Assembly (NCBI RefSeq): GCF_000092105.1
Contig: NC_014148.1
Coordinates: 2,400,001 to 2,432,000 of the forward strand
Source of the DNA: Planctopirus limnophila DSM 3776
GTDB lineage: Bacteria > Planctomycetota > Planctomycetia > Planctomycetales > Planctomycetaceae
Direction: 5' to 3'
Length of the DNA stretch: 32,000 bases
Shown here: one piece after another, positions 8,098-28,458 of the stretch
Layout of the letters: every line of letters begins with the position of its first letter
Numbering within the stretch: the first letter of the stretch is position 1
Translations under genes and position numbers: made by a program
The notes under the pieces: generated by a model
What the model saw: only the letters and a program-made list of their open reading frames with translations
Told to the model about the DNA's origin: nothing
Databases searched by the model: none

Positions 8098-9402
8098 ATG
8101 CTCGATCTCCCTGCGTGGTTCATCCTTTCGACGCTCTTTATTCTGGGTTCGATGGTCGGGAGTTTTCTGAATGTCGCTGTCTGGCGGATTCCACGCCACG
8201 ACGACTGGATTCAATCACTCAAAGGGGTCGTTTATCCCCCTTCAGCCTGCCCGGGTTGTCGGACGCCGATTCTTTCGAGAGATAATGTCCCAATTCTGGG
8301 TTGGTTATTACTTCGGGGCCGCTGTCGGGCTTGTGGAATTCGAATTTCGTGGCGTTACCCGGCGATCGAAGCCCTCAATGGCATATTGTGGGTGGTGCTC
8401 TATCTCGCCATCGTGCCTCAAGGCTACTTTCACGAAGCCTCAGCGAGTTGTGTCTGGACTGAACTGCTTCCGGGAGATGCAACGGTCGTCAGCCGTCAAG
8501 AAATCTTCAGTCGTGCGTTATGGCATTACGTTTATTTTCTGGTACTGATTGAAGGGCTGCTCGTTGCCACTTTGATTGATTTTGATCTGCAGATCATTCC
8601 CGATGGAGTGACTGTCCCCATGGCGATTTTTGGTCTCGCCATACCCATTATCACGGGTACAACAGCGCTTTGGCCCGTCTGGTTTCACGATCCGGAACTG
8701 ATCCGCACATTGGGCCTGTTCTTCCCGGAAGGAATGTTGAGCTGGTGGGAGACATGGAGCATCCCGAGCTGGATTTCTGCATGGCCTCGATGGCATGCCA
8801 TCGTATTCAGCCTGACAGGTCTGGTCGTTGGCGCTGGTCTGATCTGGCTGGTCAGAATCCTGGGACATTGGGTTTTCGGTCAAGAGGCCATGGGGTTTGG
8901 CGATGTCATTCTGGGAGGAGTGATCGGCATTTACGTTGGTTGGCAAGCCTCGATAGTCGTTTTCTTTCTGGCACCAGTCGTGGCTCTTCTTTCACTGGCG
9001 GTCACCTTCCCGTGGATCAAAAACCGGGCAATGCCCTATGGACCTTTCCTGAGTATCGCCACACTCATTGTGATACTCGGTTGGCAACCCATCATGACGC
9101 GAGCCGAGAAATTCTTTGCGATGGGGCCCTTACTTTTCATCATTGGCGCCGTGATGCTGGTACTGCTCGTCGCCTCACTCTGGCTGGTGCAGGGCATGAA
9201 GCGTTTATTGGGTATTCGCGATGAATGGCCCATCGAAGACGAATGGACCAGTGCCGACCAGTTGATCTTCTTTGCCAACCGTCAACCGGAAGCCACGATG
9301 AGCCAGCCGGGATCAAATTCAACATGGCATGGTGAGTTAGCCAGCCAGGGACGCTTACACAGCGAAAAATGGCGCGGCCATACACTCCCATGGAAAAACT
9401 GA
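8098..9402 (+). CDS. Prepilin peptidase (peptidase A24 / PilD family), unusually long
   Basis: The N-terminal CxxC...CxxC module is CPGCRTPI...GRCRACG. The two catalytic-Asp contexts are IDFDLQIIPDG and GFGDVILGG. The protein has multiple TM segments. At 434 aa it is longer than the roughly 250-290 aa I recall for typical PilD. Confidence 0.85.
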   Translation: MLDLPAWFILSTLFILGSMVGSFLNVAVWRIPRHDDWIQSLKGVVYPPSACPGCRTPILSRDNVPILGWLLLRGRCRACGIRISWRYPAIEALNGILWVVLYLAIVPQGYFHEASASCVWTELLPGDATVVSRQEIFSRALWHYVYFLVLIEGLLVATLIDFDLQIIPDGVTVPMAIFGLAIPIITGTTALWPVWFHDPELIRTLGLFFPEGMLSWWETWSIPSWISAWPRWHAIVFSLTGLVVGAGLIWLVRILGHWVFGQEAMGFGDVILGGVIGIYVGWQASIVVFFLAPVVALLSLAVTFPWIKNRAMPYGPFLSIATLIVILGWQPIMTRAEKFFAMGPLLFIIGAVMLVLLVASLWLVQGMKRLLGIRDEWPIEDEWTSADQLIFFANRQPEATMSQPGSNSTWHGELASQGRLHSEKWRGHTLPWKN

Positions 9403-9428
9403 AGGACAACCCATGACGGGCTGTCCTT
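9402..9428. terminator. Hairpin between convergent genes (candidate terminator)
   Basis: aaggacaaccc-atgac-gggctgtcctt forms an 11-bp stem with one mismatch. On the minus strand it is followed by cagTTTTTcc. It lies between the prepilin peptidase stop and the cupin gene stop. Confidence 0.4.
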
Positions 9429-9467
9429 ACAGATTCAAGCTCAAGATACGCCTGATCGCTCGAACCA

Positions 9468-10391
9468 TCAGATCATGTTCAGGCGGCGGGCCGCTCGATA
9501 GTACTGATACTTGCCCCAATCGAGGAGTCGATGCTTACCCACAGGGGAGGGCTTCCAGCCACGCTGGCGGAGCTTCCAATTGATCGAGTGAATACCCAGA
9601 CGGCGATCGAGATCGGGTGTCCGGAAGGTGATGCTCAGCGATACCGAGACCTCTTCACAGTTTTGCACGAAGTGTGGATAGGTCACTGGGAAGTGAAGTC
9701 CATAACCGGGCTGCAGATCAAAGACCCATGATTTTGAGCGATTCTCATCGGCGAGAGTCATATTGCGAACCCGTCCACCATAAAAACGCTCGAAGTCTTC
9801 CTGGGAAACAATCGACGGGTCATTTCCATCAAACAGATGAACGATTTTGCTGCCATGAATCTGGAGCAGGAAATTATGTTCCGGATCCATGTGATAGGGT
9901 GTGATGGAACCCGGAGAAGTGAGAAAAATATAGGCATGAGCCGACATCATGCCCGGGACAATGGCTTCCGATTGGGTACGAACTTCAGCCAGGCAGTCAT
10001 CCAGGACTTTCCCGTAGGCGGGATCGTTTTCCACATGCTTGAGAACCATCCACGACTTGCATTCTTTAATGCGCCGAACGGTATCGGCCACACTGAGACC
10101 ATTACGAGGCGTGAGGTCGGGATCCTGATTGATCGGTAAGTTGCCGGCATTGTATTCGATATCGTTTTCAGGAAGTTCCTGAGCCAGCTTGAGCAGGCGT
10201 TCTACGGAAAACAGCGGGTTTTCGCAGAGACGATGCCGAATGAGAAATGGCTGCTTGTTGAAGCAGCGATCAAACTCGGCAGTATCCCACTCGAGCAGAG
10301 TCGAATTCTCTCCGGCAATTGCTGATGTCTGCACAGAGTTCGGAGGAGTCATTGTCAACATGATCACGCCTTTAGGATGAGAGCATTTCAA
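9468..10391 (-). CDS. Cupin-like / JmjC-domain protein (putative 2-oxoglutarate/Fe(II) oxygenase fold)
   Basis: The 307-aa ORF has an HxD metal motif (ITPYHMDPEHNFLLQIHGSK) and a distal His (LHFPVTYPHFV), typical of the Cupin_8/JmjC layout. The start may be the internal MLTMTPP. Confidence 0.7.
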   Translation of the reverse strand: MKCSHPKGVIMLTMTPPNSVQTSAIAGENSTLLEWDTAEFDRCFNKQPFLIRHRLCENPLFSVERLLKLAQELPENDIEYNAGNLPINQDPDLTPRNGLSVADTVRRIKECKSWMVLKHVENDPAYGKVLDDCLAEVRTQSEAIVPGMMSAHAYIFLTSPGSITPYHMDPEHNFLLQIHGSKIVHLFDGNDPSIVSQEDFERFYGGRVRNMTLADENRSKSWVFDLQPGYGLHFPVTYPHFVQNCEEVSVSLSITFRTPDLDRRLGIHSINWKLRQRGWKPSPVGKHRLLDWGKYQYYRAARRLNMI

Positions 10392-10498
10392 GCATTAAAC
10401 ATGGAGTTCGCACAAGGTTGATTCGATCGCTAGTAGCAATGTGGCTTTATCGCTGCATATAAAATTCAATGAGTTCTGATCTGCCGGGTTTCGAGAAA

Positions 10499-11815
10499 CT
10501 AATTGTCGGCCATTGCGGTTTGTTGTGGAGGCTTAATGACCCTTCGCAAGGCACGCAATCCAAAGCGAGCGGCAATTGAAAGATCACCCCAGCGTCCCGT
10601 CGAGACGAGTAGTCGCTGAATCGTTCGTCGCTCGGGCCAGAGCCGCGAAATCATGAAGTGGCCAGGAGCAGCACAGGAATCCAGCCAATTCAAGTCAGGC
10701 TTCTGGTGAGCAAAGCCAATGTTCTCAATTTCGAGTTGTACCCCGGGAGAGAATTTGGCATAGGCTTCGTCAAATCCAATCTTGAATGTAAAGCCACCAT
10801 CTCCCGCCAGAAAATTGCATTTGACAGCGATCGCCTGACCATTGAGAAACAGCCCCAGCATCATCAATTGTCCGCGTTCCTGAGCTGCCCGGCAGACATC
10901 ACGAAACCACTGTGCGTGGTGAGAGAGCGATGCCATCGCCGTCTGTTGCTGACCTTTCCATCCTCCACCTTCAAGCTGCAAAAAAAGATCCACCCAGGGG
11001 TCAACATTCTCCCCGGCATTCAATTCACGCGTTTCAAATTGCCCCTGTTCAGCAAGCCGACGACGTTGCCGCCGGAGTTCCTGACGGTGATGCGATGTCG
11101 TCGCCTGATCCAGATAAATCTCAGCACTGGCGGCTCTTCGAAACAGCGCCCGGCCATATTGATGAGATACGAGCGAAAAGACCGATTGTCGCTCCATGGC
11201 TTCGAGTAAAGCGTGTTGAAATGGCCCCTCACCATGGATATGCGGCAACTCGAGAAAACTGGCACCGCAGGCTGTTGTCCGAGTCCACTTGAAGAACTCG
11301 GTCAGAATGATCGCTGTGTTCTCAGAATCAACCAGGGGAGTGCAAAGATACGTGTAATCATGCTGCCAGAGTCGATCACAATTCAGCGGCTGTTGCCATG
11401 TCTTGTGCTGACGCTGGAGAGGGAACATCGCGACCAGCTTTTCGGATTCTCCGGGCCGCAATCCCGATTGCCAGATGAGAATAAAGCGAAGTCCCGGATC
11501 GTGCGGAAAATGTCGCAGCGCCGGCAGGACAAACCAATGCTCATAAAAAGGATTGGGCTCGATCGACCGACTGGCTAATTCACTCCACTGTGGAATGATT
11601 TCTTGCAGGCGGGCATGATCGGTAACGATTTCCATGCGGAAATCGGTTTCGTGAATGCGTCGTTTATTTCGCTGGGTGTGACCATCAGCTTTGGGAATTG
11701 ACGTGACTGCCGAAGGAGTCTCAGGGGGTGAAGCAGATGATTCCGCCCTCACTGTTCCGGCTGCAGCGCTTCCCATCCCGATATGCCTTTTCCTGTCGCT
11801 TGATCTCGGGATCAC
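10499..11815 (-). CDS. FemAB/CelD-like GNAT family acyltransferase (Acetyltransf_6-like)
   Basis: The 438-aa ORF has a C-terminal half (LMMLGLFLNGQAIAVKCNFLAGDGGFTFKIGFDEAYAKFSPGVQLE) that matches the pattern I recall for BioF2-like/CelD GNAT proteins. The N-terminus is Ser/Ala/Pro-rich and may be over-extended. Confidence 0.7.
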   Translation of the reverse strand: MIPRSSDRKRHIGMGSAAAGTVRAESSASPPETPSAVTSIPKADGHTQRNKRRIHETDFRMEIVTDHARLQEIIPQWSELASRSIEPNPFYEHWFVLPALRHFPHDPGLRFILIWQSGLRPGESEKLVAMFPLQRQHKTWQQPLNCDRLWQHDYTYLCTPLVDSENTAIILTEFFKWTRTTACGASFLELPHIHGEGPFQHALLEAMERQSVFSLVSHQYGRALFRRAASAEIYLDQATTSHHRQELRRQRRRLAEQGQFETRELNAGENVDPWVDLFLQLEGGGWKGQQQTAMASLSHHAQWFRDVCRAAQERGQLMMLGLFLNGQAIAVKCNFLAGDGGFTFKIGFDEAYAKFSPGVQLEIENIGFAHQKPDLNWLDSCAAPGHFMISRLWPERRTIQRLLVSTGRWGDLSIAARFGLRALRRVIKPPQQTAMADN

Positions 11816-11909
11816 GTGGATCCCGCAATGACCTTCACTACAGGTAAAGCTAGTTCAAGAACCGGGTGAGGCAAATCGGACCGCGATGGCTGAGTTCTTC
11901 TGCGGCCGG

Positions 11910-13907
11910 TTATTCAGCTTGAGTGCCCAGCCTGACGATTTTTAACTCCTGTAGAGATCTAGCGTTACGAACATCCGGCGAAAGTCGTAACGTGCAGGGA
12001 AGAAAGACCGGTTTCGCCAGCGCTTCCGAGGGAACAGCATCCAGAAGAGCGAGCCTTAATGGGACTTGCACCAGTTCATGCGCGGGAGGAACGACTCTTA
12101 AGTAGAGCCTTCTCGACGAGAACAACTCAATCAGAAGATTGGCAAACTCACGAGACAATCCGGCCGCGACAAGGACGCCAGCCGGGTGCTTCAGCCGTAA
12201 ACCGTAGTCACCTTTCGTGGGTTGAAATCGATCAAAACTTTCGGCCAGAGGGGCAAAGCCCGCCTCACCGGTTCGTCTGACATATTCGACAATTGCAGCC
12301 TTCAGTTGGCCGTGAGCTGCCAGTTGTTGCCATGCCTCTGCAGCATCTATGGTCACTGCGGGAGCTGCGGAAATCGTGCGTAATTCTGCCTGCTGTTCAT
12401 CGTCGAGCATGCGGACAACCCGATGATCGCTGGTCGCTTTGCGGCAACGACCTTCCGCCCACTGGCGGATCGCAAAAACCTGATCTTCGGCAGTGATCGA
12501 CAAGGGAATCAGTGATCGACGTGCTTTCTCAAGATCTTCCATTTCCAGAATTCGACCGTGGCTGAAAGATTCCACAATCGCTGAACTGACAATCTGCTCC
12601 AGTTCCGCTCCGCTGTAGCCATCGGTCTGCCGCGCCAACAGATCGAGATCGTACAGGGAAGGTTGCCAGCCTCGCTTTTCGAGATGGATCTGCAATATCT
12701 TTAGTCGCTCATCAAAGTTGGGTAAGTCGATAAAAAAGAGTTCATCAAATCGGCCGCGGCGCAGCAGCTCCGGGGGAAGAGATTCAACAGAATTGGCTGT
12801 GGCTACCAGAAAGACAGGTTGCTCGACTTCGCTGATCCAGGTCAGAAAAGTTCCCAGCAGGCGGGCCATGGTTGAGTCGGTCGCTCCACCGGATGATTGT
12901 TCGGCTCCTGCAAAACCTTTTTCGATTTCATCGAGCCAGAGGACAGCCGGTGCGAGATTCTCCATCGTCTGCAGGACTTTTCGCAGATTTTCTTCCGGCC
13001 CACCGTGCTGACCAGCCAGTAAATGAGTGACATCGAGCCGCACCAGAGGAAACCCCAGGACTCTGGCAGTCACGCGTGCAGAAAGACTTTTTCCGCACCC
13101 TTGAACCCCCAGGAGAAAGACTCCCTTTGGGGCAGGGATCCCTTGTTCTCGGGCTGAGGGTGATAAAGCCTTTGATCTTTGGGTCAGCCACTCCTTGAGC
13201 TGATCGAGTCCACCAACATTGTTTAGACCTTCTTGAAGATCATAAAAGGTCAAGAACTCCGATCCGGAAGCAAGGCTCTTCTTCTCGGAGATCAGCAGAC
13301 GAATGACATCATCATCAACGGTTTTGCGATCAAGCATCGCCCGGCGAATTGCCATGCGAGCTTCATGCCAGGTCAGACCGGCGAGTGCTTTAAGCAATGA
13401 GTCTTCCTCTTCGTGGCTCCAAGGTTCGACCTGGTGATGCATCGCAAGAGATTCTTCCTTGTACTCCTGCAAAATCTGTCTCAAATCGGCGAGATCAGGC
13501 AAAGGGAGGGCCATTGAAATAGCCAGCTTTTCGACATCCACGGGAAGATCTGGGTCAGGATCAATAACGATCAAAGTTTGACGGCGACGAAGTGCCGTGG
13601 TGACGGTTTCACGAAAATCTCGAATGGCCTGCGGAGAATCGAGAAAGCGGCCTAACCGACAAATGAGCCAGACCAGACCTTCCGCAGCGACCTCGGCGCC
13701 GGCAACCCATTGAGCCGAATCGATGGGCCTCGTGGCGGCAAGATCGGGCTGATGTTCAGCCGGCATTCCCTCACGCAATTCCCAGGATTCTTCTTCCGAG
13801 AGTTGGCGAATGATTGATAGGCAGCGTTCCTCTTCGTGTGTCTTGATCACGACCAGCGGATAGCCAGCTCGAATACGCCCCACGAGATCGGCAGAAAAGT
13901 TTGACAT
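11910..13907 (-). CDS. AAA+ ATPase, Ycf46-like, with an extra C-terminal domain of about 170 aa
   Basis: Walker A is GVQGCGKS and Walker B is VLWLDEIE, with a second region of homology (ATANSVESLPPELLRRGRFDE). The N-terminus (RIRAGYPLVVIKTHEEERCL) resembles the Ycf46-family N-domain. The C-terminal tail is unrecognised. Confidence 0.85.
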   Translation of the reverse strand: MSNFSADLVGRIRAGYPLVVIKTHEEERCLSIIRQLSEEESWELREGMPAEHQPDLAATRPIDSAQWVAGAEVAAEGLVWLICRLGRFLDSPQAIRDFRETVTTALRRRQTLIVIDPDPDLPVDVEKLAISMALPLPDLADLRQILQEYKEESLAMHHQVEPWSHEEEDSLLKALAGLTWHEARMAIRRAMLDRKTVDDDVIRLLISEKKSLASGSEFLTFYDLQEGLNNVGGLDQLKEWLTQRSKALSPSAREQGIPAPKGVFLLGVQGCGKSLSARVTARVLGFPLVRLDVTHLLAGQHGGPEENLRKVLQTMENLAPAVLWLDEIEKGFAGAEQSSGGATDSTMARLLGTFLTWISEVEQPVFLVATANSVESLPPELLRRGRFDELFFIDLPNFDERLKILQIHLEKRGWQPSLYDLDLLARQTDGYSGAELEQIVSSAIVESFSHGRILEMEDLEKARRSLIPLSITAEDQVFAIRQWAEGRCRKATSDHRVVRMLDDEQQAELRTISAAPAVTIDAAEAWQQLAAHGQLKAAIVEYVRRTGEAGFAPLAESFDRFQPTKGDYGLRLKHPAGVLVAAGLSREFANLLIELFSSRRLYLRVVPPAHELVQVPLRLALLDAVPSEALAKPVFLPCTLRLSPDVRNARSLQELKIVRLGTQAE

Positions 13908-14227
13908 GAATCCCTCGGAACTCAGAGAATTTGACTCAGCGCTCTGTCATAAAACTGCCGGATTTCAGATGAAACCTCGACACTTTCCGCCACCTGTTGT
14001 TTCATGCACAGCTTGCGTGAGTATCGAACGCTCTGCAAGCATGAAAACCTGCCCAAAGCGATCTTGATTGAACAGATGAATGCCAATACTCTCATGCTGG
14101 TCAATTCAGGGATCAATTTACGCACTGGATGGCGTTCCCTTCAGTCCCATAGACACTTCTTCAGAATGCAGATTTGGGCTTTGGCCCGAAAAGAGTTCAG
14201 GAAGGAATCTGAACAGGAGAGGCCGCA

Positions 14228-15562
14228 ATGATTTTGCGTGCCTGTGGTTGGGTTACACAATTTGTCAAAGCCACACTTTTGCTGACTATGTCCATCTGCG
14301 GCATGGAGGTCGGGCTGAGAGTGTGGGAAGCCTACGCTCCTGAACATAGTCCCAAACCTGCTACTTCACTCTCCACGCTGCTCGTGCCCTCCGCGAGGCA
14401 ATACCAGGAACTCATCCCTCGTACGGAAAGAACCTGGCCCGGCACGAATGGGCAAACCGTTCGTTTTCGCACCAACAGCCGAGGTGGACGGGGGGAAGAA
14501 TTGCAGACCCCAAAGCCTCAAGGAACCTTTCGTGTGCTCTGGCTGGGAAATGAAACCGTTTTAGCTCCCATGCTCGATGAACCTCTCACTCCACCGCACC
14601 TCGTGCGGACATTCCTGCAAACCAGATCGCCAGCACCCGTCGAAATTATTAATGGTGGATTTCCCGAAAGCTGCCCACTGCTGATGTCGCTAAAGTACAT
14701 GAACGATTGGGCCGGTACGGAACCCGATCTCATTTTGATTCACGTTGATCGATCAGCGATTGAGCGCGACCGCCAGTTGCGTCGATTTACACACGCTTCC
14801 GTCGATGGCCGTCCTTTGTGTTGCACTCATCCCTCGCTAACCACACCCTCAGCATCTCAACCCGCGAGAGATTGGCGAGAACGCTGGCGACTGATCGATC
14901 TGACGATTGCCTGGACTGCCCACTTGTGGCATTCGCAGACCGCAGAAAAGCTTAATGACGACCAATTGCCGTCACGCTCCCCCAGCTCCTTCAGCAGTCC
15001 AGATAGCCAGAAAGCATTGATCAATGGAACTGAGCATACGTTGCGTCCGATCCTGACAATTCTCGATCTTGCCAAACGATCCAACACCCCGGTGATCGTG
15101 ATCACTTCACCGGTCTCACAGAGAACAACTGAAGACCAGAGTTTTGCCAAACTCCTCTCTGAGTTCTGCCAGACACATCGACTTCCACTTATCAATGCCA
15201 CATCGGCCTGGAACGATCAGAACCTTCCCGATGCCATGACCACTTCTATGGCAGGCAGCCAGCAACCGGCGGCGATTGAACAGTATTCACAGATCGTATC
15301 AAAGACACTTCTTGAGAACTGGCCCGGCCCATGGAGAGGGAATACATCCAGACCTGTTGACGAGAGTCGACCAAGCTCAGAGAGACAACCACTCCTTACC
15401 AGAGAAGCGACGAATGGCTTAGCGCCACAAATACTGCGGCCCGCCACACCAGTCGATCCTCGTTCTGCTCCCATGGTTCAGGATGGGCCAAGAAATCACC
15501 GAGGAACTGGTTCTATACAGATGCCTCGGGATCGAGAGATTGTTCCTGCGGGCGGATTTTGA
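14228..15562 (+). CDS. Membrane-anchored hypothetical protein, possibly a degenerate SGNH/GDSL-like fold
   Basis: The Shine-Dalgarno sequence AGGAGAGG lies 7 nt upstream of the ATG. There is an N-terminal hydrophobic segment. FRVLWLGNETV occupies the position of SGNH block I and DLILIHVD / VIVITSP look strand-like. The tail is Pro/Ser-rich. The fold call is weak. Confidence 0.6.
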   Translation: MILRACGWVTQFVKATLLLTMSICGMEVGLRVWEAYAPEHSPKPATSLSTLLVPSARQYQELIPRTERTWPGTNGQTVRFRTNSRGGRGEELQTPKPQGTFRVLWLGNETVLAPMLDEPLTPPHLVRTFLQTRSPAPVEIINGGFPESCPLLMSLKYMNDWAGTEPDLILIHVDRSAIERDRQLRRFTHASVDGRPLCCTHPSLTTPSASQPARDWRERWRLIDLTIAWTAHLWHSQTAEKLNDDQLPSRSPSSFSSPDSQKALINGTEHTLRPILTILDLAKRSNTPVIVITSPVSQRTTEDQSFAKLLSEFCQTHRLPLINATSAWNDQNLPDAMTTSMAGSQQPAAIEQYSQIVSKTLLENWPGPWRGNTSRPVDESRPSSERQPLLTREATNGLAPQILRPATPVDPRSAPMVQDGPRNHRGTGSIQMPRDREIVPAGGF

Positions 15563-15607
15563 ACGATTGCTGGCAACCGTCGGCAGCGTCAAGGTGTCTC
15601 CCGCAGA

Positions 15608-15641
15608 AACAAAAAAACCTCAAGCAAATCGCTTGAGGTTT
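15608..15641 (-). terminator. Intrinsic terminator (perfect 11-bp stem, 5-nt loop, U-tract on the minus strand)
   Basis: On the plus strand the sequence is aaacctcaagc-aaatc-gcttgaggttt. On the minus strand the hairpin is followed by TTTTGTTT and the stem's own 3' TTT extends this into a TTTTTTTGTTT run. It lies 57 nt downstream of the 15698-15973 gene. It may also act weakly on the convergent plus-strand gene. Confidence 0.7.
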
Positions 15642-15697
15642 GATCAATTCTTGAATTTGCTATTTGGGGCAGCAATTCCAATGGCATAGTCCTAAGA

Positions 15698-15973
15698 CTA
15701 GGCTTTTGCTCCACGGGCAAGTCGTGCCAGCATTTCGGCAGGACCATGATCGTAGCAATCATCTGTGTTCCAGAGTGGCACACCAGCGGAGTAGCGGGCA
15801 GCCAGCATCAGAACTTTATCTTCCGAACCTGGTTTTGCTGTGGTTGGACGAGCAGGATCAATCCCCAGGGCTTCGAAGTCAATATGCTCGAACTCACCCT
15901 CTAATTCTTCACCTTCTTCGCCATATCCCAGGGTCTCTTCTTCCAGATCATCGAGATCAAAATCGCGAGCCAT
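15698..15973 (-). CDS. Small acidic hypothetical protein (91 aa)
   Basis: A strong Shine-Dalgarno sequence (AAAGGAGTG) lies 7-9 nt upstream of the ATG, and a canonical terminator lies downstream. The N-terminal 40 aa are about 50% Asp/Glu. The C-terminal part (VLMLAARYSAGVPLWNTDDCYDHGP) looks folded. Confidence 0.65.
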   Translation of the reverse strand: MARDFDLDDLEEETLGYGEEGEELEGEFEHIDFEALGIDPARPTTAKPGSEDKVLMLAARYSAGVPLWNTDDCYDHGPAEMLARLARGAKA

Positions 15974-16400
15974 CTTTGATCACTCCTTTCTACTAATAAA
16001 TTGATGAAGTCTAATGTTTTCAGAACGCTGAAACTTATGCTCAAACTTGCCGAATCGCTTCGACATCGATTTTCCAAGCCCAAGCGGCCCATTGAAACTT
16101 GAATTCGGGCAGCCGCTGTCTACACACTGAGTACGATCACAAACCAAAAATCTAATTCGAAAAAACTCTGAGTGAAAACTTTTTGTGAAGTCTGATGGCT
16201 ATCGAGACAAAATCAGTTAATGGTTGAAAATTCGCACCACTCAACTGTTCTACGCACCATTCAAACCTCACCTTTCACTCAGTATGTTGCCATCGGTCAT
16301 CATTCAACAGACCCATTACATCCGGTCAAAGTTGAATGAATGACCACACAGCCCCATCATGTCGACTGGCTCTCTATTTCTTAGCCAGCTTTCAAATCAA

Positions 16401-21608: not shown

Positions 21609-22143
21609 TTGCATTTTGAGTGGGCTCTGCAGCATTTTGATTCATGACGGGTTTTCCCTTGGCAGACTTAGGGCTTTCCACCATCTGCCCATCAATATCT
21701 GGCATCGTCGCATAGATCACATTGTTCTCATCAAAGAGCAGAGCCACATTGATGTGCCAGATCGAATCTTCCCGGCGCCACACATCACAGTAGAAAATCG
21801 ATTGATTAGCGCCGTAACTGCCTTGAATTCCCGCCTTCTGAAGCTTGGCCATCGCTTCTTCACGCTCAGTACCAAGCGGAGTGATCTTTAAGACTTCGCG
21901 AACCTGCTGGCCCGCGGGCCAGGGGCAGGATTGAAAACCCAGTTGACGATCATTTTGCCACGAAGCACATGAAGAAGTGATCGTAGTCATAGCTAGCAGC
22001 AGACTCCACAGCCCGAAAGGCCACGATGATGGAAACATCCATCGCTGACTCTGTTCGAACGCAACAGTCTTCGATGTTGCTTGCATTTCCGCGTGACTTG
22101 CCATGAGGTCGGAAGGATTCATTTCCGTTAACATGAAGCCCAC
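21583..22143 (-). CDS. Hypothetical protein, probable lipoprotein
   Basis: The hydrophobic segment FGLWSLLLAMTTITSSC has a lipobox-like Cys. The true start may be the internal MFPSSW at about 22038. I recognise no domain. Confidence 0.55.
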   Translation of the reverse strand: MGFMLTEMNPSDLMASHAEMQATSKTVAFEQSQRWMFPSSWPFGLWSLLLAMTTITSSCASWQNDRQLGFQSCPWPAGQQVREVLKITPLGTEREEAMAKLQKAGIQGSYGANQSIFYCDVWRREDSIWHINVALLFDENNVIYATMPDIDGQMVESPKSAKGKPVMNQNAAEPTQNATSDDPFLQ

Positions 22144-22260
22144 CAGAGAAATTCTTGATTCTTCCTGGAGACCGGGGTTCTATTCCACGATTGGCTTTTA
22201 CCTTGCTGGCTTCCCATTCGTCCAGATCAGTTGCCGGGATCTCTGCCCATAAATGTGGCT

Positions 22261-23340
22261 TTAAGCCGCACGGTCGAAAGTACGGATTCCCTGACCATCA
22301 ATTTGATCCGTCGAGTCGCGGGAATGGGATTTTTGTCCGACAATTCGGTCTGCAATAAAGTCAATCGACGTCGAAAGCCACCGGCGCAAGGGAAGATTCA
22401 GTCCCGCCGCCTCCTGACGCCAGGCGAATTCGTAGTCCCAGTCTTGGCAGGCATAGGCAATCCCCAGTTGCTCAAGTTGCCAGGCATTCACCTGCTGCTC
22501 CCACTGATTGGGCAGTGGAACAACAGTCACGGGTAAGCCCAGAAGATAAGCTTCCAAAGGTGTCGTGAAGCCTGCGCTGGTAATCACTGCCCGTGCTGAC
22601 AACAGATCCACTTCCATCTGCTGGCGGCTGGCTTGACGAAATTGAACCCATTTTTGCTCGATCCAACTCGCTGCGGCAAAGCCATACGCCACAACGGGAA
22701 CTTTCTCTCTGGCAGCCCATTCGACCAGTTTGCCGGAGTCGGCAAAGTGGGCATAGACCAGCAGATGCTCACCTCGCTTCGATTGGGAATTCACAATTTC
22801 AGGGCGGACGACAGGTGGGAGGCATCGATAGGTCGTCGGTGCATAGTGATATCCAAAAAAGCGGTCTGCCCCGAGAGTGAATAATCGCATGGCAGCCCGA
22901 GCCAGACGTGCATTCTTGGCCAGGTGTGCCGGGAACTCCAGATCACGGTCCAGGAGCGCCACCTGCCTGCTAACAGCCAGCACCTCGCAACGAGGAGCCA
23001 GCAGCGGACTGGCAGTCAGCGGTTCAAAGTCACTGATGATCAAATCCGGCTGGTACTCCCTGACGATTCGCCGAACTGCACGGAGACAACCAAATGTTCT
23101 CGGCGATTCCTTGAACCAGTTCCACGCCGTCTTCTGAAAATCGGTCTGTCCTTGATGAACTGCGTAAGGCAGGCCTGCGAAGTGCCGATGCCAGCGGAAC
23201 TGATATCCACTGGAAGTGAGAGCTGGCCCGGAAGTGATCAGTCGGACGTCATGTCCTCGCGCTTCCAGAATGGGAATGAGACTGGCGGCCTTCGAAAGAT
23301 GCCCCTGACCCTGCGAATTGGCTCCGTAGAGTATTCGCAT
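22261..23340 (-). CDS. Glycosyltransferase (GT-B fold, MJ1255/MGT-like)
   Basis: The N-terminus MRILYGANSQGQGHLSKAASLIPILEARGHDVRLITSG has the typical GT-B G-x-GH motif. The C-terminal half contains ITSAGFTTPLEAYLLGLP, the nucleotide-sugar binding helix pattern. Confidence 0.8.
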   Translation of the reverse strand: MRILYGANSQGQGHLSKAASLIPILEARGHDVRLITSGPALTSSGYQFRWHRHFAGLPYAVHQGQTDFQKTAWNWFKESPRTFGCLRAVRRIVREYQPDLIISDFEPLTASPLLAPRCEVLAVSRQVALLDRDLEFPAHLAKNARLARAAMRLFTLGADRFFGYHYAPTTYRCLPPVVRPEIVNSQSKRGEHLLVYAHFADSGKLVEWAAREKVPVVAYGFAAASWIEQKWVQFRQASRQQMEVDLLSARAVITSAGFTTPLEAYLLGLPVTVVPLPNQWEQQVNAWQLEQLGIAYACQDWDYEFAWRQEAAGLNLPLRRWLSTSIDFIADRIVGQKSHSRDSTDQIDGQGIRTFDRAA

Positions 23341-23566
23341 GATGGCAGCCTCCTCCAGCGATGGTTGTCACCAACACACCAATCATCGTTCAGGTCGCTG
23401 TCAGATCGAAAGATCCCGAGCTCATATCTGGGATTTTCCAGCGACATCCAACGACCGTTCGTCTTCCCATCAGAATCGACGAAAGACTGACCAGCCCTTG
23501 AATCAACCTTACGGATGATGCGAATGAAGCCTGCGTCATAACGGCAATAGTTGCCAGACAATACGA

Positions 23567-24496
23567 TCATTCCGATGGAATGTAGGCATTTCCACGATGA
23601 CCAAAGGAAAAGATCTGCGGATGGAAAATCTCCGCGAGAATTTCGGCCGATTCGACCAGTCGAGGCCCAGGTCGATTGAAATACTGGTTGCCATCAACGA
23701 TGTAAACCTGTCCTCCCTGCACAGCCCGCAGCTTTGCCCATTCAGGCTGTTTCGCCAGGCATGGCCATTCCTGCTGAATACGGGGAATGTCAAATCCACA
23801 AGGCATCACCAGCACGATATCAGGATCGGAGGCCAGGAGTTCATTCCAGGTCATCCACGGCGAATGTTGCCCAGCCACTCCAAAAAGATTCTCACCCCCG
23901 GCCAATGTCACCAGTTCGGGAACCCAGTTTCCTGCCGCCATAATGGGTTCCATCCATTCAATACAAGCGACTCGCGGTCTTCGGGTGACTTTACTCGCAG
24001 TTTGCGAGATTTCGTCCAATCGCCGCTGTGAATCTGCAATCAACTGAGCACCCCGCTCGGCCACACCAGCAGCGACGGCCACTCTTTCGATATCTTTCCA
24101 GACATCACTCAGCCAGTTGGGTTCACAGGCGACAATGCGAGGCTGACTTGTCACCACCGCGCACATGGCTGCTTCCACATCTTTGAGACTCACGGCACAG
24201 ACCTCGCACTGAGTCTGCGTGAGAATCAAAGTCGGCTCAAGATGATTCAGAAGTTCCACATCCACGTTGTAAACAGAAGTCGCATCTTTCAGGACATCTT
24301 TGACACGCTGATCAATCTCAAGACTGGAACCATTCACATCCAGTTTGGCCGAAGAACATTTGGGCAAACTCAGCACTTGTGGCGGATAATCGCATTCATG
24401 AGAACGGCCCACGAGTTCTTCAACGAGTCCCAGGCGATCCACAATTTCTGTCGCGCTGGCGATCAGCGACACAATCCGCTCGGGTCTTCTCTGCAT
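23567..24496 (-). CDS. BtuF/TroA-like (class III periplasmic-binding-protein fold) cobalamin/siderophore-type binding protein lacking a signal peptide
   Basis: The protein starts directly with the family's first strand (RIVSLIASATEIVDRLGL..VG.SHECDYP). It contains LEPTLILT, DPDIVLVMPCG and the NRPGPRLVESAEILAEIF C-terminal helix. No hydrophobic leader is available in the ORF. Confidence 0.8.
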   Translation of the reverse strand: MQRRPERIVSLIASATEIVDRLGLVEELVGRSHECDYPPQVLSLPKCSSAKLDVNGSSLEIDQRVKDVLKDATSVYNVDVELLNHLEPTLILTQTQCEVCAVSLKDVEAAMCAVVTSQPRIVACEPNWLSDVWKDIERVAVAAGVAERGAQLIADSQRRLDEISQTASKVTRRPRVACIEWMEPIMAAGNWVPELVTLAGGENLFGVAGQHSPWMTWNELLASDPDIVLVMPCGFDIPRIQQEWPCLAKQPEWAKLRAVQGGQVYIVDGNQYFNRPGPRLVESAEILAEIFHPQIFSFGHRGNAYIPSE

Positions 24497-24530
24497 GGCT
24501 GGCTCAATCTATAAACGAAACGATTAAACA

Positions 24531-25199
24531 TCAGGCTATGGCGAATTCGCACTGACGGTAAGGCCCTTCGTGGCGAATCCCCTGCTGGAGATACTCAATC
24601 GGCCACCGAAACAGCGGGCCATTCACCACCAGACTATGGTATTCGCCATTCTCACCTGCAGGATCCACTCCTGCTGGTAACGATTCCAGAAAATGATGAT
24701 CAAGCTCGCATCCCAGGGATTCAGCGTTCAAACAAGGTGCCAGCACACTGCACACGATGGATCGATACCCCGCCGCAACCAGTTGCGGCACGACATCTTC
24801 TGGTGGCAACTTCCACAACGGGAACAAAGGAGTCATCCCGTGGCGAGCACAGAGCCCTTCGCGATAGGCTCGAATCTCTTCCACGAAAAGATCACCAAAG
24901 ACGATATGATCAACCCCACGGCTCTTAAGTTTGGAAAAATACTTCGCGAGCCGATTTTCATATTCGATGTTCGAGCATTGATCAGGAAGAGGAATCAGAT
25001 CAACCGGAATACTCATGGATCTGGCCTGTGCTTGAATCATGCTCAAGGGTGTCCCATGAATTGCTAACAACCCACTTTCTTCGCAATACGTCGTGAAAAG
25101 CGCATGAACTTCAAAAGCCAATGGTTGAGAAAATAACCTGTGCAAGGCGAGCATGCAGTCCTTACCGCCACTCCAGGAAACAACTACTTTGATGGGCAT
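24531..25199 (-). CDS. Dph6/MJ0570-like PP-loop ATP pyrophosphatase (adenine nucleotide alpha-hydrolase superfamily)
   Basis: The PP-loop VVSWSGGKDCMLAL lies at the N-terminus, and the family-like blocks HIVFGDLF and NGEYHSLV are present. The ORF extends to a TTG at 25241, but the ATG at 25199 gives the usual short N-terminus. Confidence 0.8.
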   Translation of the reverse strand: MPIKVVVSWSGGKDCMLALHRLFSQPLAFEVHALFTTYCEESGLLAIHGTPLSMIQAQARSMSIPVDLIPLPDQCSNIEYENRLAKYFSKLKSRGVDHIVFGDLFVEEIRAYREGLCARHGMTPLFPLWKLPPEDVVPQLVAAGYRSIVCSVLAPCLNAESLGCELDHHFLESLPAGVDPAGENGEYHSLVVNGPLFRWPIEYLQQGIRHEGPYRQCEFAIA

Positions 25200-25326
25200 T
25201 ACAAGTACCGATCGAGTCAGTGCAGGCATTAAGCAAGTCAATTCAAACTCACAAACTCAACACCGGCAATCGTAGAAAACTTTCCACGCCATCGCGTAAT
25301 ACCCATCTGGTCTTCCGGGTCGAAAC

Positions 25327-25647
25327 TCAGGGCTTTTGAACCAGTGCTGTCTTTGTCTTCGTACAGACTCGCAGAGCAGGGTTTCTTTGCCATTCATCTC
25401 CTGGTGGCATGGGTTGCCATTTCTGGCAACTGGGACACCACAAAGCTGGCAACCACTCCTGTTCTTCTCCCACAGGAAGAACTCGAAACTCTTTCGCTTC
25501 TCCTGTTCCTTGCCGGACAAAAGTTGTCAGCGGTCGTTCGTCATCATGGACTGTCGATGAAGAACAGCCGCAGGTGATGGACGCCAGCATGAAACATAGA
25601 ATCATGCAGCATACCGACAATTGCCTGGAGTATTTGATCATTATCAT
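25327..25647 (-). CDS. Small putative lipoprotein (106 aa)
   Basis: The hydrophobic leader ends in a lipobox-like ASITCGC. The gene lies directly downstream of, and co-oriented with, the DUF1559 gene. It contains a CPSC motif and no domain I recognise. Confidence 0.55.
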   Translation of the reverse strand: MIMIKYSRQLSVCCMILCFMLASITCGCSSSTVHDDERPLTTFVRQGTGEAKEFRVLPVGEEQEWLPALWCPSCQKWQPMPPGDEWQRNPALRVCTKTKTALVQKP

Positions 25648-25773
25648 ATTGAGCCAGACTCGCTTCCATAAAATTGAACTCCATGATCACGCTCCAGAGG
25701 CCCACGTATCGACCTGGACCTCTGAAGGAACGTCCATACAACACGACGAATTCATCGCGGGGACGAACTGGCC

Positions 25774-26697
25774 TTAATTACGGTCGTAAAGTTCATTCTG
25801 CAGAAGAGGATCACTCAGATTTCCGTTACTGACATGACCAAGCCTTTTCTCTTCGATCAATCCGGCCTGGGCAGGGGTCATGTAGTTGGAGCCAGGGACT
25901 TCAATACGGAAGTTTCTAGGTCTGGTTTCCACGTGCCCGTCGAGAAAGGCCACATTGGCTGTATCCGAGTGCCGGAAATGAACTGAGGGATAGTTAGCAC
26001 TGGGAGGTTCCAGACGCCAGTTTTCCAGCAATTTCAGAGTGAAATCCACTTGTGCGCTGTCTGAGAAAAGAATCGTATTCGTCATCTGGGCAACATCGCG
26101 GAAGCGATACGTGACGGGAGTCGAAGAGACTGCAGGTGGCCAGCCGGCATAGCTTAATCCGGGCGAAACCAGCGCGTTGAGCGCATAGCCTGAGGCCATC
26201 TGTCCAAAGCGAATACCGTCGACCTGACCTGGCCCGAAATCAGGGCATTGATAGGCAGCACGATTAGTTTCCATATAGGGGGCCAGCGGCCCTTTCTGAA
26301 AATCGAGCTGGCGGGAAGGATCGGTCTCATCACGATTGACCTCACCAAACCAATAGATATTCCTGCCACGATTCGGAGGAGTATATCCAGCCATTACATA
26401 CTGCTGCTGTCGCACATCATCAATCACATAAGGGACGATATGACCGTTGTGGACATCGGCATAATTATGAACGGCAAGTGCCAGTTGCTTGAGATTGTTT
26501 CGGCACTGGGTTGTCCGGGCGGCTGCTCGGGCCTGTTGCACGGCCGGAAGTAAAAGCCCGATCAAGACCGCGATGATGGCAATGACCACCAGAAGTTCGA
26601 TGAGGGTAAAACCTCGTGTTGAACGGCGCAGAGGGGGCCTGTTGCCGCTGCGTGATGCGGCCGGGAGAGAGAACATCATTGTCAAAACCTTAACCAC
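25774..26697 (-). CDS. Prepilin-type N-terminal cleavage/methylation protein of the DUF1559 / H-X9-DG family (pseudopilin-like)
   Basis: The class III signal is [34 protein letters not shown]. The C-terminal H-X9-DG motif is [13 protein letters not shown]. The likely real start is the ATG at 26679, with AAGG 9 nt upstream, rather than the GTG at 26697. Confidence 0.9.
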
Positions 26698-26854
26698 GAA
26701 GGTTCAATTGCCTGCGCATAGAGTCACATCAAGGCAGACTGAATCTGCTATCAATCTTAGTTTGAGGCCCAACCTCATGACGGTTGGTATCCCTTGCTCA
26801 GATCAATAAGACGACTCAGACCGCCAGATCTGTGATCACTCACCTGCTGGCAAC

Positions 26855-27015
26855 AAAATGACATCTGGGCAGGTCTTCTGACTCCCGGATCATTCGACCA
26901 ATCACACCTTCCCACGCTTTACAGCGCAGTGGCTCAACGTGAATGTCGTCCCCGGATACAGCGGCGGGACCGTGACGGATTCGCACCGTCTTCCCTATTC
27001 TCCAGTGAAGCCACA
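26855..27015 (-). ncRNA. Cobalamin (B12) riboswitch
   Basis: The minus strand reads ..GAAUAGGGAAGACGGUGCGAAUCCGUCACGGUCCCGCCGCUGUAUCCGGGG..(26995-26958).. then GAGCCACUGCGCUGUAAAGCGUGGGAAGG, then GAUCCGGGAGUCAGAAGACCUGCCC (B12 box at 26883-26867). All conserved blocks of the cobalamin riboswitch as I recall them are present in the right order. The element lies about 180 nt upstream of the DUF1559 gene start. The outer boundaries are approximate. Confidence 0.85.
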
Positions 27016-27253
27016 AGCCTCACCAGCACCCATGTCGGGAGGGAGAGTACCACGCCGCAAATCATTTTCAAGCCCCAGTGAGATCGATTCGCTCGAACCC
27101 ATTTTCCAATACGCTCGTAACCTGCATCCATGCCAAGAGATAGGTTTAAAGAATCGTGGCGGCCTCTTCGGCAAGGTTCCGCAACTGTAAAGGGTTGTCA
27201 CTCAAGGAACGATTCATGCATCACGATCGCATCACAAGATCCCGGGGAAAGCA

Positions 27254-28222
27254 TCAAGCGGGCCGATGTGTCGCTGCTGCACGCGAAAGTCTGTCGTTGA
27301 TGGCCATGCCCAGCCCATGTTCCGGGAATCGTAATGCCGCAATTCGAGGGACACCTGATCGATCCAGTTGATGCAAAGCCTGGAAGAGCAGGCTGGCGGC
27401 TTCCTGAAGGTTCTTTCGAGGAGAAAGCTCCATGACGGGCCCCAGATGCCCCTGGGGTCGACCACAAAAGGTTAACACACCATCTCCGGGTTTGAGTTCT
27501 TCAAATCGATCAATCATCACCAGTGGTGTTGCAGGTGCGTAATGTTTCATGAGCATTCCGGGAGCTGCCTGACTCGCTGCTGTTTCTACAGATTGAGCAG
27601 GCAATCTCTTCAGCGGCCCGATCATGTGCTCGACCTGTTCCACAGGCAAGCCCCCAGGTCTGAGCAGGTAAACACCATCCGGCATGAAACCAATAATGGT
27701 CGATTCCACACCCACTTCGCATGCCCCGCCATCCAGGACATAAGGAATACGTCCCTCAAGTTGTTCCACCACATGCTGGGCACTGGTGGGGCTTAATCGC
27801 CCGAACAAATTCGCACTCGGGGCAGCCAGAGGCACGCCAACTTTCTCAATGATTTTTCGCATCAGCGGATGCTTCGGACATCGAACGGCGACCGTCCCCA
27901 GGCCAGCCGTCGCCAGATCCGGAACATGCGGCTTTTTGGGAAGCACGAGCGTTAGAGGGCCGGGCCAGAAGGTATCGACGAGCCGCCGGGCATCATGCGG
28001 TACTTCGCTGGCCAGTTGAGAGACTTGACCAGGCCTTGCGATGTGCAAAATCAAAGGGTCAAACGTGGGTCGATCCTTGGCAGAGAAAATCTTGGCCAGC
28101 ACCTCTGGATTCAAACCCAGCCCGGCAAGCCCGTAAACCGTCTCCGTCGGGAGTGCTACCAACTCACCAGCCTTCAAGGCGCGAATGGCTTCTTCAGCAT
28201 CTGATAATACGACGGTCTGCAT
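27254..28222 (-). CDS. tsaC: L-threonylcarbamoyladenylate synthase (Sua5/YrdC family, long form with Sua5 C-terminal domain)
   Basis: The motif KAGELVALPTETVYGLAG is followed by KDRP, HPL and SAN blocks and then a Sua5-type C-terminal domain. The ORF is open to a GTG at 28303. The ATG at 28222 (MQTVVLSDAEEAIRAL) gives the canonical N-terminus. Confidence 0.9.
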   Translation of the reverse strand: MQTVVLSDAEEAIRALKAGELVALPTETVYGLAGLGLNPEVLAKIFSAKDRPTFDPLILHIARPGQVSQLASEVPHDARRLVDTFWPGPLTLVLPKKPHVPDLATAGLGTVAVRCPKHPLMRKIIEKVGVPLAAPSANLFGRLSPTSAQHVVEQLEGRIPYVLDGGACEVGVESTIIGFMPDGVYLLRPGGLPVEQVEHMIGPLKRLPAQSVETAASQAAPGMLMKHYAPATPLVMIDRFEELKPGDGVLTFCGRPQGHLGPVMELSPRKNLQEAASLLFQALHQLDRSGVPRIAALRFPEHGLGMAINDRLSRAAATHRPA

Positions 28223-28458
28223 CCACAGGGCTCCAGCGAAAATGAATTCTTCGCTGAATTGCAGCAGCCCAGCCTCATTCCCGCAAGTCTGGAAAGGTAT
28301 CACCCTTGATCAACAAAAACTTGCTGCTAGGCCAAAAACCGGACAGCCAAATCGTGTTTTGCAGAGAATGATCTGCAACTAAAGAGGCATGCGGGAGACC
28401 ATGTCCCCTGGTCATCTACAGCATCACTCACAGAGTGGAAATCATGCCCCACCAGAGT

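Follow-up and report, generated by a model that had tools for sequence, protein, structure and literature searches.

A gene string behind a cobalamin riboswitch in Planctopirus limnophila and its likely link with corrinoid acquisition and salvage

The stretch of DNA analysed here, referred to as the window, comprises 32,000 nucleotides (nt) of the genome of Planctopirus limnophila DSM 3776 (contig NC_014148.1, positions 2,400,001 to 2,432,000), and contains on its minus strand a string of four genes headed by a cobalamin (B12) riboswitch of the adenosylcobalamin (AdoCbl) type. The B12 theme of this string is well supported by comparison with other genomes, and we consider it rather probable that the string is a B12-repressed operon for corrinoid acquisition and salvage, in an organism presumed to depend on external corrinoid; the roles of the individual proteins are those that we infer. 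Behind the aptamer (26851..27048) lie, in order, the DUF1559 pseudopilin-like gene Plim_1856 (25774..26697), a gene for a small secreted or lipoprotein-like protein of 106 amino acids (aa; 25327..25647), the PP-loop ATP pyrophosphatase gene Plim_1853 (24531..25199), and Plim_1852 (23567..24496), which encodes a leaderless protein of 309 aa with a class III binding-protein fold. A preliminary description of this DNA had reported three co-oriented genes after the DUF1559 gene, and the coordinates of the open reading frames (ORFs) agree with the gaps that it gave: 126 nt between the DUF1559 gene and the small gene, 127 nt between the small gene and the PP-loop gene (85 nt if the latter starts at TTG 25241), and 34 nt between the PP-loop gene and the binding-protein gene. 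It had also remarked that BtuB and BtuCD partners are not in the window, and Pfam scans of the window's 23 longest ORFs indeed found no TonB-dependent receptor, FecCD permease or ATP-binding cassette (ABC) ATPase. B12 is traded between microbes, and the string bears on the question of how it is acquired by bacteria without BtuB or BtuCD.

The riboswitch (27048..26851) matches Rfam family RF00174 over its full length with 112.7 bits, against a gathering cut-off of 31.5 (E = 9.8e-28), and the DUF1559 start at 26679 follows the 3' end of the aptamer after about 170 nt. This ATG, within the ORF 26697..25774, agrees with the database entry of 301 aa. In five relatives (L001, L004, L073, L090 and L091; L numbers denote the loci compared), a leader hairpin GACAA-CGAGGA-UUGUC, with the Shine-Dalgarno-like GAGGA in its loop, stands just before the AUG; the leader of the window (about 26676-26700, minus strand) has a reduced form of it, GACAAUGAUG, and the position of this reduced hairpin just before ATG 26679 supports that start. 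Inspection of nine orthologous leaders revealed no canonical expression platform, no canonical terminator and no obvious sequestering helix. The product of Plim_1856 has a prepilin-type N-terminus, a DUF1559 region and a C-terminal H-X9-DG motif, with matches to N_methyl (PF07963), SBP_bac_10 (PF07596) and the NCBIfam model TIGR04294, and its predicted structure has a long N-terminal helix at residues 32-82. Its orthologue group shares 51-69% identity over the full length, and the riboswitch precedes the DUF1559 gene in all nine orthologues that could be tested (the window, L001, L004, L009, L073 and L089-L092). The last four had been selected only for lying on long contigs, and each carries an Rfam-grade cobalamin riboswitch whose 3' end precedes the called start of the gene by about 145-250 nt. 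With nine out of nine, the DUF1559 gene is the invariant target of the riboswitch. The preliminary description had taken it as a landmark; it is instead this invariant target and, as described below, the only essential gene of the string. A literature search found no paper linking DUF1559 with cobalamin.

Two further observations concern this gene. About 16 kb away, the window encodes a prepilin peptidase of 434 aa (8098-9402, plus strand) with Peptidase_A24 N-terminal and catalytic domains, which would be the expected processor of DUF1559 prepilin-type N-termini. In L001, the called 5' end of the DUF1559 ORF of Symmachiella dynata (3985-4200) encodes several copies of a repeated SCARVSQL peptide; these may be due to tandemly repeated DNA in the leader or to a mis-called start.

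The string recurs in planctomycetes, and its neighbourhood is thus conserved. L004 and L009 have the riboswitch, the DUF1559 gene, the small gene, the PP-loop gene, a gene for a DUF6580 membrane protein and the leaderless binding-protein gene, in this order; Symmachiella dynata (L001) shows the same arrangement with an alpha/beta hydrolase gene before the binding-protein gene. In L086, a close relative of the window, the PP-loop gene is followed directly by the binding-protein gene, as in the window; the DUF6580 gene, usual in relatives, is absent from the window. The PP-loop gene is absent from L073, L033, L089 and L090, the first of which is also without the small gene. The shortest versions consist of riboswitch, DUF1559 and DUF6580 (L092), or of riboswitch and DUF1559 only (L091). 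In L004 the spacing of the genes ranges from an 8-nt overlap to 15 nt, and genes also overlap in L009.

Members of the same module are found near B12 genes in other phyla. In L053, from Acidobacteriota, two tandem cobalamin riboswitches were found (8318-16354): the first is followed by a PP-loop gene, a DUF6580 gene and a leaderless binding-protein gene, and the second by genes for a TonB receptor, a secreted binding protein, an ABC ATPase and FecCD. L085 (Chthoniobacterales) has a riboswitch, a TonB receptor gene, the leaderless binding-protein gene and a PP-loop gene, while L029 (Chloroflexi) has a riboswitch followed by genes for a secreted binding protein, the leaderless protein and a FecCD-ATPase pair. 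In L065 (Planctomycetales), an AdoCbl-II riboswitch is accompanied by genes for a TonB receptor, the PP-loop enzyme and a secreted binding protein, with FecCD and the leaderless protein farther on; a PduO-type adenosyltransferase-like gene, assigned by its similarity to a Pfam-confirmed one in L027, is nearby. In Planctomycetes, Acidobacteria, Verrucomicrobia and Chloroflexi, the leaderless protein recurs near B12 riboswitches and BtuB-like, BtuCD-type and PP-loop genes.

To put numbers on these associations, genomes were scanned for relatives of Plim_1852, which gave at least 600 matched stretches, 599 of them encoding a relative; the counts that follow refer to the best 80 loci, in which PP-loop and DUF6580 neighbours were scored by profile searches on six-frame ORFs, and riboswitches by a covariance model with a cross-check against Rfam. 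A PP-loop gene, a DUF6580 gene or both stand beside the leaderless protein in 13 of the 80 loci, and L065 may be added, where the PP-loop gene is about 3.4 kb away. The arrangement of the window, with the PP-loop gene directly before the binding-protein gene and no DUF6580, occurs in four loci, all from Acidobacteria. A riboswitch was present in six of the 80 loci and some B12 context in about 17, and neighbour clustering revealed no universal neighbour.

A second scan, centred on DUF6580 in metagenomes, yielded 80 loci (L093-L172). Of those with enough sequence, 38 of 57 have a DUF71-B12 gene (the subgroup of the PP-loop enzyme, see below) as the gene immediately before DUF6580, and 22 of 29 have a cobalamin riboswitch upstream; the weak riboswitch matches that were re-tested all passed Rfam (12/12). 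In the loci from outside the planctomycetes (acidobacterial, verrucomicrobial and soil-metagenome), the gene between the riboswitch and the module codes for a TonB-dependent receptor, so that the general layout there is riboswitch, TonB receptor, PP-loop gene (not always present), DUF6580 and leaderless binding protein (also not always present). In planctomycetes, the DUF1559 gene, often together with the small lipoprotein gene, fills the slot of the receptor. The DUF1559 gene shares with BtuB its position as the first gene after the riboswitch, ahead of the PP-loop, DUF6580 and binding-protein genes; the DUF1559 product has neither homology to that receptor nor a beta-barrel, and consists of a prepilin-type N-terminal helix and a globular domain without a solved homologue. 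Two loci have an additional gene between the riboswitch-controlled TonB receptor and DUF6580: a DUF5074 lipoprotein gene in L141 (4760-5824), and a CobQ-type cobyric acid synthase gene in L098 (2781-4310).

DUF6580 is small (about 200 aa) and spans the membrane several times. A PDB search found no similarity between it and any solved protein, Pfam gave no other relatives, weak ones included, and no paper mentioning it was found in the literature. It resembles BtuM, ECF-CbrT and Pnu-type carriers in being a small membrane protein from B12-riboswitch operons with cytoplasmic partners encoded alongside. It differs from BtuM in having no detectable sequence similarity to it, provided that BtuM was in the PDB copy searched. 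By analogy, PnuC with NadR, in which import is coupled with cytoplasmic trapping, is a model that would fit DUF6580.

The PP-loop enzyme is also linked with B12. From its ATG, Plim_1853 encodes 222 aa (ORF 25199..24531; alternative start TTG 25241), contains the PP-loop SGGKDC and matches PF01902 (Diphthami_syn_2) with E = 2.1e-35 and 122.7 bits against a cut-off of 23.2, which bears out its early assignment, from the PP-loop, to the Dph6 family of ATP pyrophosphatases. At the position where the Dph6 structures PH1257 and PF0828 have EGGEFE, Plim_1853 has ENGEYH, and ENGE[FY]H is found in 110 of its 120 nearest homologues. According to a 2012 study by de Crecy-Lagard et al. (PMC3541065), the replacement of the Dph6 motif EGGE[D/E]xE188 by ENGE[F/Y]H defines a subgroup named DUF71-B12, 75 of whose 102 members adjoin B12 transporter genes, and for which a role in B12 salvage, perhaps in place of bacterial CbiZ, was proposed. 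By its sequence features, Plim_1853 belongs to this subgroup: it shares the PF01902 domain, the SGGKD PP-loop, the ENGE[F/Y]H motif and the clustering with B12 transport genes. The B12 link of Plim_1853 is therefore not new, since the salvage role of DUF71-B12 was predicted in 2012, and in this respect the preliminary description, which knew of no role for the bacterial members, has to be corrected. What differs is the company of the gene. In PMC3541065, DUF71-B12 genes are reported to cluster mainly with BtuCDF and cbiB, whereas the neighbour here is the leaderless BtuF-fold protein and, in relatives, DUF6580; the pairing with DUF6580 seen in the metagenome loci is not mentioned in the passages of that study consulted here. 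A gene of the Plim_1853 type stands behind a cobalamin riboswitch in the window, L001, L004, L009 and L053, and two homologues at about 40% identity (L087 and L088) have no neighbours for B12 uptake or salvage. No later biochemistry on DUF71-B12 was found in the literature.

In RefSeq, Plim_1853 bears the name 'diphthine--ammonia ligase'. The PF01902 match would suit that name, as would the fact that the best NCBIfam match is TIGR03679 (Dph6_archaeal) and the nearest solved structures are the archaeal PH1257 and PF0828. Nevertheless, the TIGR03679 score of 91.7 bits is far under the cut-off of 197.3, the catalytic EGGE[D/E]xE is replaced by ENGEYH, the genomic context is B12-related throughout and, as is well established and stated in PMC3541065, bacteria make no diphthamide. 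It is thus extremely improbable that Plim_1853 is a true diphthine-ammonia ligase, and the name is probably a propagated misannotation, given the score below the Dph6 equivalog cut-off and the missing Dph6 catalytic motif.

The last protein of the string, Plim_1852 (100% identical to ADG67682 / WP_013110113), matches PF01497 (Peripla_BP_2) with E = 5.6e-22, and its first beta-strand (RIVSLIASATEIV) begins at residue 7. The ORF is already maximal, because an upstream stop codon lies only 34 nt before the ATG. All 120 close homologues share the leaderless start, save a few with longer called N-termini, whose extensions run into the upstream gene or have no hydrophobic leader. A search of 1.84 billion representative proteins gave 1259 relatives at E <= 1e-30. 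Of the 150 representatives listed, nearly all align from their own residues 2-15, and the exceptions are a few fusions or fragments. The protein might be taken for an exported BtuF whose signal peptide was missed through a wrong start or a frameshift, and the few database homologues annotated 20-40 residues longer, such as P0018 with 329 aa, are what could suggest it. Against this stand the stop codon, which prevents any extension of the ORF, the lack of a hydrophobic leader and the gene overlap in the longer annotations, and the N-termini of the family, which begin 2-15 residues before strand 1; moreover, L065 and L053 each encode, in addition to the leaderless protein, a secreted binding protein that has a leader but lacks the cysteine motifs described below. 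Such an error is hardly credible, and Plim_1852 is, as far as can be judged from sequence, cytoplasmic, as the preliminary description had held.

The family is widespread. Planctomycetes, Acidobacteria, Cyanobacteria, Melainabacteria, Chloroflexi, Gemmatimonadetes, Latescibacteria and Verrucomicrobia, among others, are represented in the best 80 loci, with identities of the leaderless protein between 53 and 66%, which, over so many phyla, is unusually high conservation. Four members (P0244, P0246, P0304 and P0344) appear fused to other domains, namely AHSA1/SRPBCC, dephospho-CoA kinase (CoaE), a DCC1-like thiol-disulfide oxidoreductase and DUF5522; these candidate fusions, which may be gene-calling artefacts, would support a cytoplasmic location and are silent on B12. 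No paper on a cytoplasmic BtuF-like protein was found in the literature.

The AlphaFold2 model of Plim_1852 is confident (mean predicted local distance difference test, pLDDT, 94.6) and predicts a class III binding-protein fold, with two Rossmann-like lobes and a long connecting helix. Among solved structures, the best match by sequence is Vibrio cholerae BtuF (E = 1.1e-12, DYPP motif included), while the top Foldseek matches in the PDB are the heme binders ShuT, RhuT and PhuT together with V. cholerae BtuF (E about 1e-17, template modelling score 0.65-0.72 by query length). The searches revealed no solved structure inside the family, and led to no solved structure or named family other than generic heme, B12 and siderophore binders. 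The term 'BtuF-like' of the preliminary description therefore holds for the fold and not for identity with BtuF, since Plim_1852 scores 27.2 bits against the cut-off of 234 of the BtuF equivalog PRK03379 and has four cysteines that BtuF lacks. In common with BtuF, it has the class III (cluster A-II) two-lobe fold, the Peripla_BP_2 domain, the xSxxDYPP and RPxPR motifs, and a place in B12-riboswitch loci. In contrast to BtuF, it has no signal peptide, is about 60 residues longer and is not adjoined by BtuCD in planctomycetes, FecCD or ABC ATPase genes being adjacent only in a minority of relatives (L029, L053); in L053, L065 and L029, moreover, a secreted binding protein is encoded in addition to the one of its type.

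The four cysteines are part of a signature peculiar to the family. C35, C97, C100 and C233 are conserved in 248-256 of 261 members, and H33, Q94, W181, W191, R275 and R279 in at least 248 of 261, within the signature motifs SHEC35D[YF]P, Q94xxC97xVC100A, EW181, PC233G[FY] and FNRPGPR. None of the matched solved binding proteins for which an alignment was displayed has these cysteines, and where a secreted binding protein coexists with the leaderless one (L053, L065) the cysteine motifs occur only in the latter. In the model, they come after strands 28-31, 90-94 and 227-230, at the C-terminal strand ends of both lobes, a position from which they would line the ligand cleft.

Transposon data on P. 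limnophila, as given in a published study and its supplement (PMC10632474), add a view of which genes the cell needs. Plim_1856 is essential, with an insertion index of 0.0077, while Plim_1855 (0.064), Plim_1854 (0.090), Plim_1853 (0.087) and Plim_1852 (0.12) are non-essential. DUF1559, the largest paralogue family of planctomycetes, is the largest paralogue group of the strain, with 68 genes, of which only two are essential. The gene for the B12-dependent MetH (Plim_2467) is also essential. The strain has cobT and cobS (Plim_1024), which are non-essential. Cells were grown with a vitamin solution in the medium and, according to the authors, a low insertion density may have other causes. This pattern is consistent with a cell that needs imported corrinoid for MetH, its external dependence being presumed. 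If the string serves corrinoid acquisition, the DUF1559 protein would be indispensable for it, and Plim_1852 and Plim_1853 would be dispensable accessories, assuming that the vitamin solution supplies complete cobalamin.

A scheme for corrinoid acquisition can be proposed from these data. When adenosylcobalamin is scarce, the riboswitch would permit expression of the string. The DUF1559 pseudopilin-like protein, perhaps with the small lipoprotein, would capture corrinoid in the cell envelope in place of a BtuB-type receptor, and an inner-membrane carrier would import it, namely DUF6580 in most relatives and a putative other carrier in P. limnophila. In the cytoplasm, the 309-aa BtuF-fold protein would bind the incoming corrinoid, trap it and pass it on; alternatively, it might process the upper ligand or the oxidation state of the cobalt through a four-cysteine site in its cleft. 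With ATP, the PP-loop enzyme may adenylate incomplete or foreign corrinoids at a carboxylate or amide group, so that CobS and CobT could rebuild a usable cobamide from them.

Several observations weigh against such an operon, some of them bearing on transport and transcription and others on the ligand of the binding protein. As regards the former, profile and Pfam scans of the window found no DUF6580 and no other recognisable inner-membrane carrier. The model of the DUF1559 protein is of moderate confidence (pLDDT 72), with no significant PDB match and no solved fold. Six acidobacterial loci have a PP-loop gene, a DUF6580 gene or both next to the binding-protein gene and no riboswitch. The gaps of 126 and 127 nt exceed those in L004 and L009, and the first of them folds very stably: the spacer 25648..25773 (minus strand) reaches a minimum free energy of -53.5 kcal/mol (z = -4.41), and none of 200 shuffled sequences folded as well. 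In view of these wide gaps and the very stable first spacer, co-transcription in P. limnophila can only be presumed from synteny.

It is accordingly worth weighing whether the riboswitch governs the DUF1559 gene alone, the other three genes being transcribed separately and being neighbours by descent. Besides the gaps and the spacer, this would account for L091, where riboswitch and DUF1559 stand alone, for the acidobacterial pairs of PP-loop and binding-protein genes without a riboswitch, and for a DUF1559 gene that is essential in the transposon data (PMC10632474) when the downstream genes are not; a weak hairpin at 25299..25284, the sole intergenic terminator-like candidate, could be added. 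However, a pattern scan of the minus strand from 22000 to 27400 detected no sigma-70-like promoter, and terminator-like sites were not enriched over shuffled sequence (5 observed vs 5.2 expected). The same gene order is found with the tight spacing of L004 and the overlap of L009, and the first spacer, with its 13-bp hairpin and no U-tract, is not a canonical terminator. It may be an mRNA processing or stability element, which could uncouple the level of the first gene from the rest. Separate transcription is, on balance, an unlikely account, though one of some weight. The preliminary description had proposed that four genes may form one B12-responsive operon, to be doubted if promoters or terminators stood between them; the scan gave no promoter and terminators at chance level, and the riboswitch-headed string is conserved in planctomycetes, while for its claim of one transcript spanning the whole string in P. 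limnophila it is conserved synteny that speaks.

As regards the ligand, the 309-aa protein could be a cytoplasmic metal, iron-sulfur or heme protein that binds no corrinoid, its B12 neighbours reflecting an indirect relation such as cobalt or redox supply. The near-invariant C35, C97, C100 and C233, following beta-strands of both lobes, would suit such a protein, and heme binders stand beside BtuF at the top of its structural matches. B12 context is lacking in about 78% of the 80 genome loci, and the fusion partners are general cytoplasmic domains. The residues that contact B12 in Escherichia coli BtuF, which we take to be Y50, W66, W85 (stacking on the corrin), F162, W196, D242 and R246, seem partly lost in a tentative profile alignment with BtuF, which is a lead more than a test: E34 falls at Y50, with C35 next to it; Q94 falls at W85 and is followed by an 8-residue insert with C97xxC100; and the W66 loop is replaced by an insertion of about 25-30 residues. 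In the same tentative alignment, on the other hand, W181, the W of a conserved HSPW and R275 occupy the positions of F162, W196 and R246, which thus stay aromatic or arginine. V. cholerae BtuF, DYPP included, is the best solved sequence match, and the family is placed repeatedly, in at least four phyla, with cobalamin riboswitches and with BtuB-like, BtuCD-like, PduO-type, DUF71-B12 and DUF6580 genes. A cysteine site and a corrinoid site could, moreover, coexist in one protein. A protein without corrinoid affinity is therefore a possibility to be taken seriously, albeit an improbable one.

If the string is indeed a corrinoid operon, a more specific and clearly more tentative proposal may be made, namely that planctomycetes take up corrinoid without BtuB, by means of one dedicated, essential member of the large DUF1559 family and the small lipoprotein, and that the leaderless four-cysteine family is a cytoplasmic receiver or processor of corrinoids. 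Position and essentiality are what suggest that the DUF1559 protein may be functionally equivalent to BtuB. The leaderless protein might then be either a trap that makes import through DUF6580 one-way, or a decyanase or reductase that depends on thiolates or an iron-sulfur centre, in the manner of CblC. In eukaryotes, imported cobalamin is taken over in the cytoplasm by the B12 trafficking and processing chaperone CblC (MMACHC), which strips off or modifies the upper ligand; the fold of CblC is unrelated, and it would be a conceptual analogue, alike in function only. Should this proposal be true, a function could for the first time be assigned to a DUF1559 protein, to DUF6580 and to the leaderless binding-protein family. 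Of the string's proteins, the DUF71-B12 enzyme already had its salvage prediction and the others are uncharacterised. The DUF1559 group offers a concrete handle on the question of uptake, being behind a B12 riboswitch, in the slot of BtuB, and essential in a strain in which the B12-dependent MetH is essential. The recurring module, which joins DUF71-B12, DUF6580 and the leaderless four-cysteine BtuF-fold protein, makes the 2012 prediction on bacterial DUF71 proteins directly testable.

The small protein encoded between the DUF1559 and PP-loop genes (ORF 25647..25327) has an N-terminus, MIMIKYSRQLSVCCMILCFMLASITCGC, that resembles a lipoprotein signal, and a C-terminal pattern CxxC..W..PP....C.K; it has no family match in Pfam or NCBIfam. 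In L001, L004, L009, L033, L086, L089 and L090, the DUF1559 gene is followed by a positional homologue (111-141 aa), with 64% identity to that of L086 and 25-31% to five others; the window, L001, L033 and L086 show lipobox-like cysteines. In GenBank, the interval from the PP-loop gene to the DUF1559 gene (25200-25773, minus strand) is annotated with two small hypothetical genes, Plim_1854 and Plim_1855; of the ORFs in this interval, only 25647..25327 has positional homologues in relatives. On the other side of the riboswitch, directly upstream of it, is a Sua5/TsaC gene (Plim_1857; 27254-28303, minus strand), which is essential in the transposon data (PMC10632474 supplement) and has a counterpart at the same place in the distant planctomycete L073 (4749-5732); it is probably an unrelated conserved neighbour.

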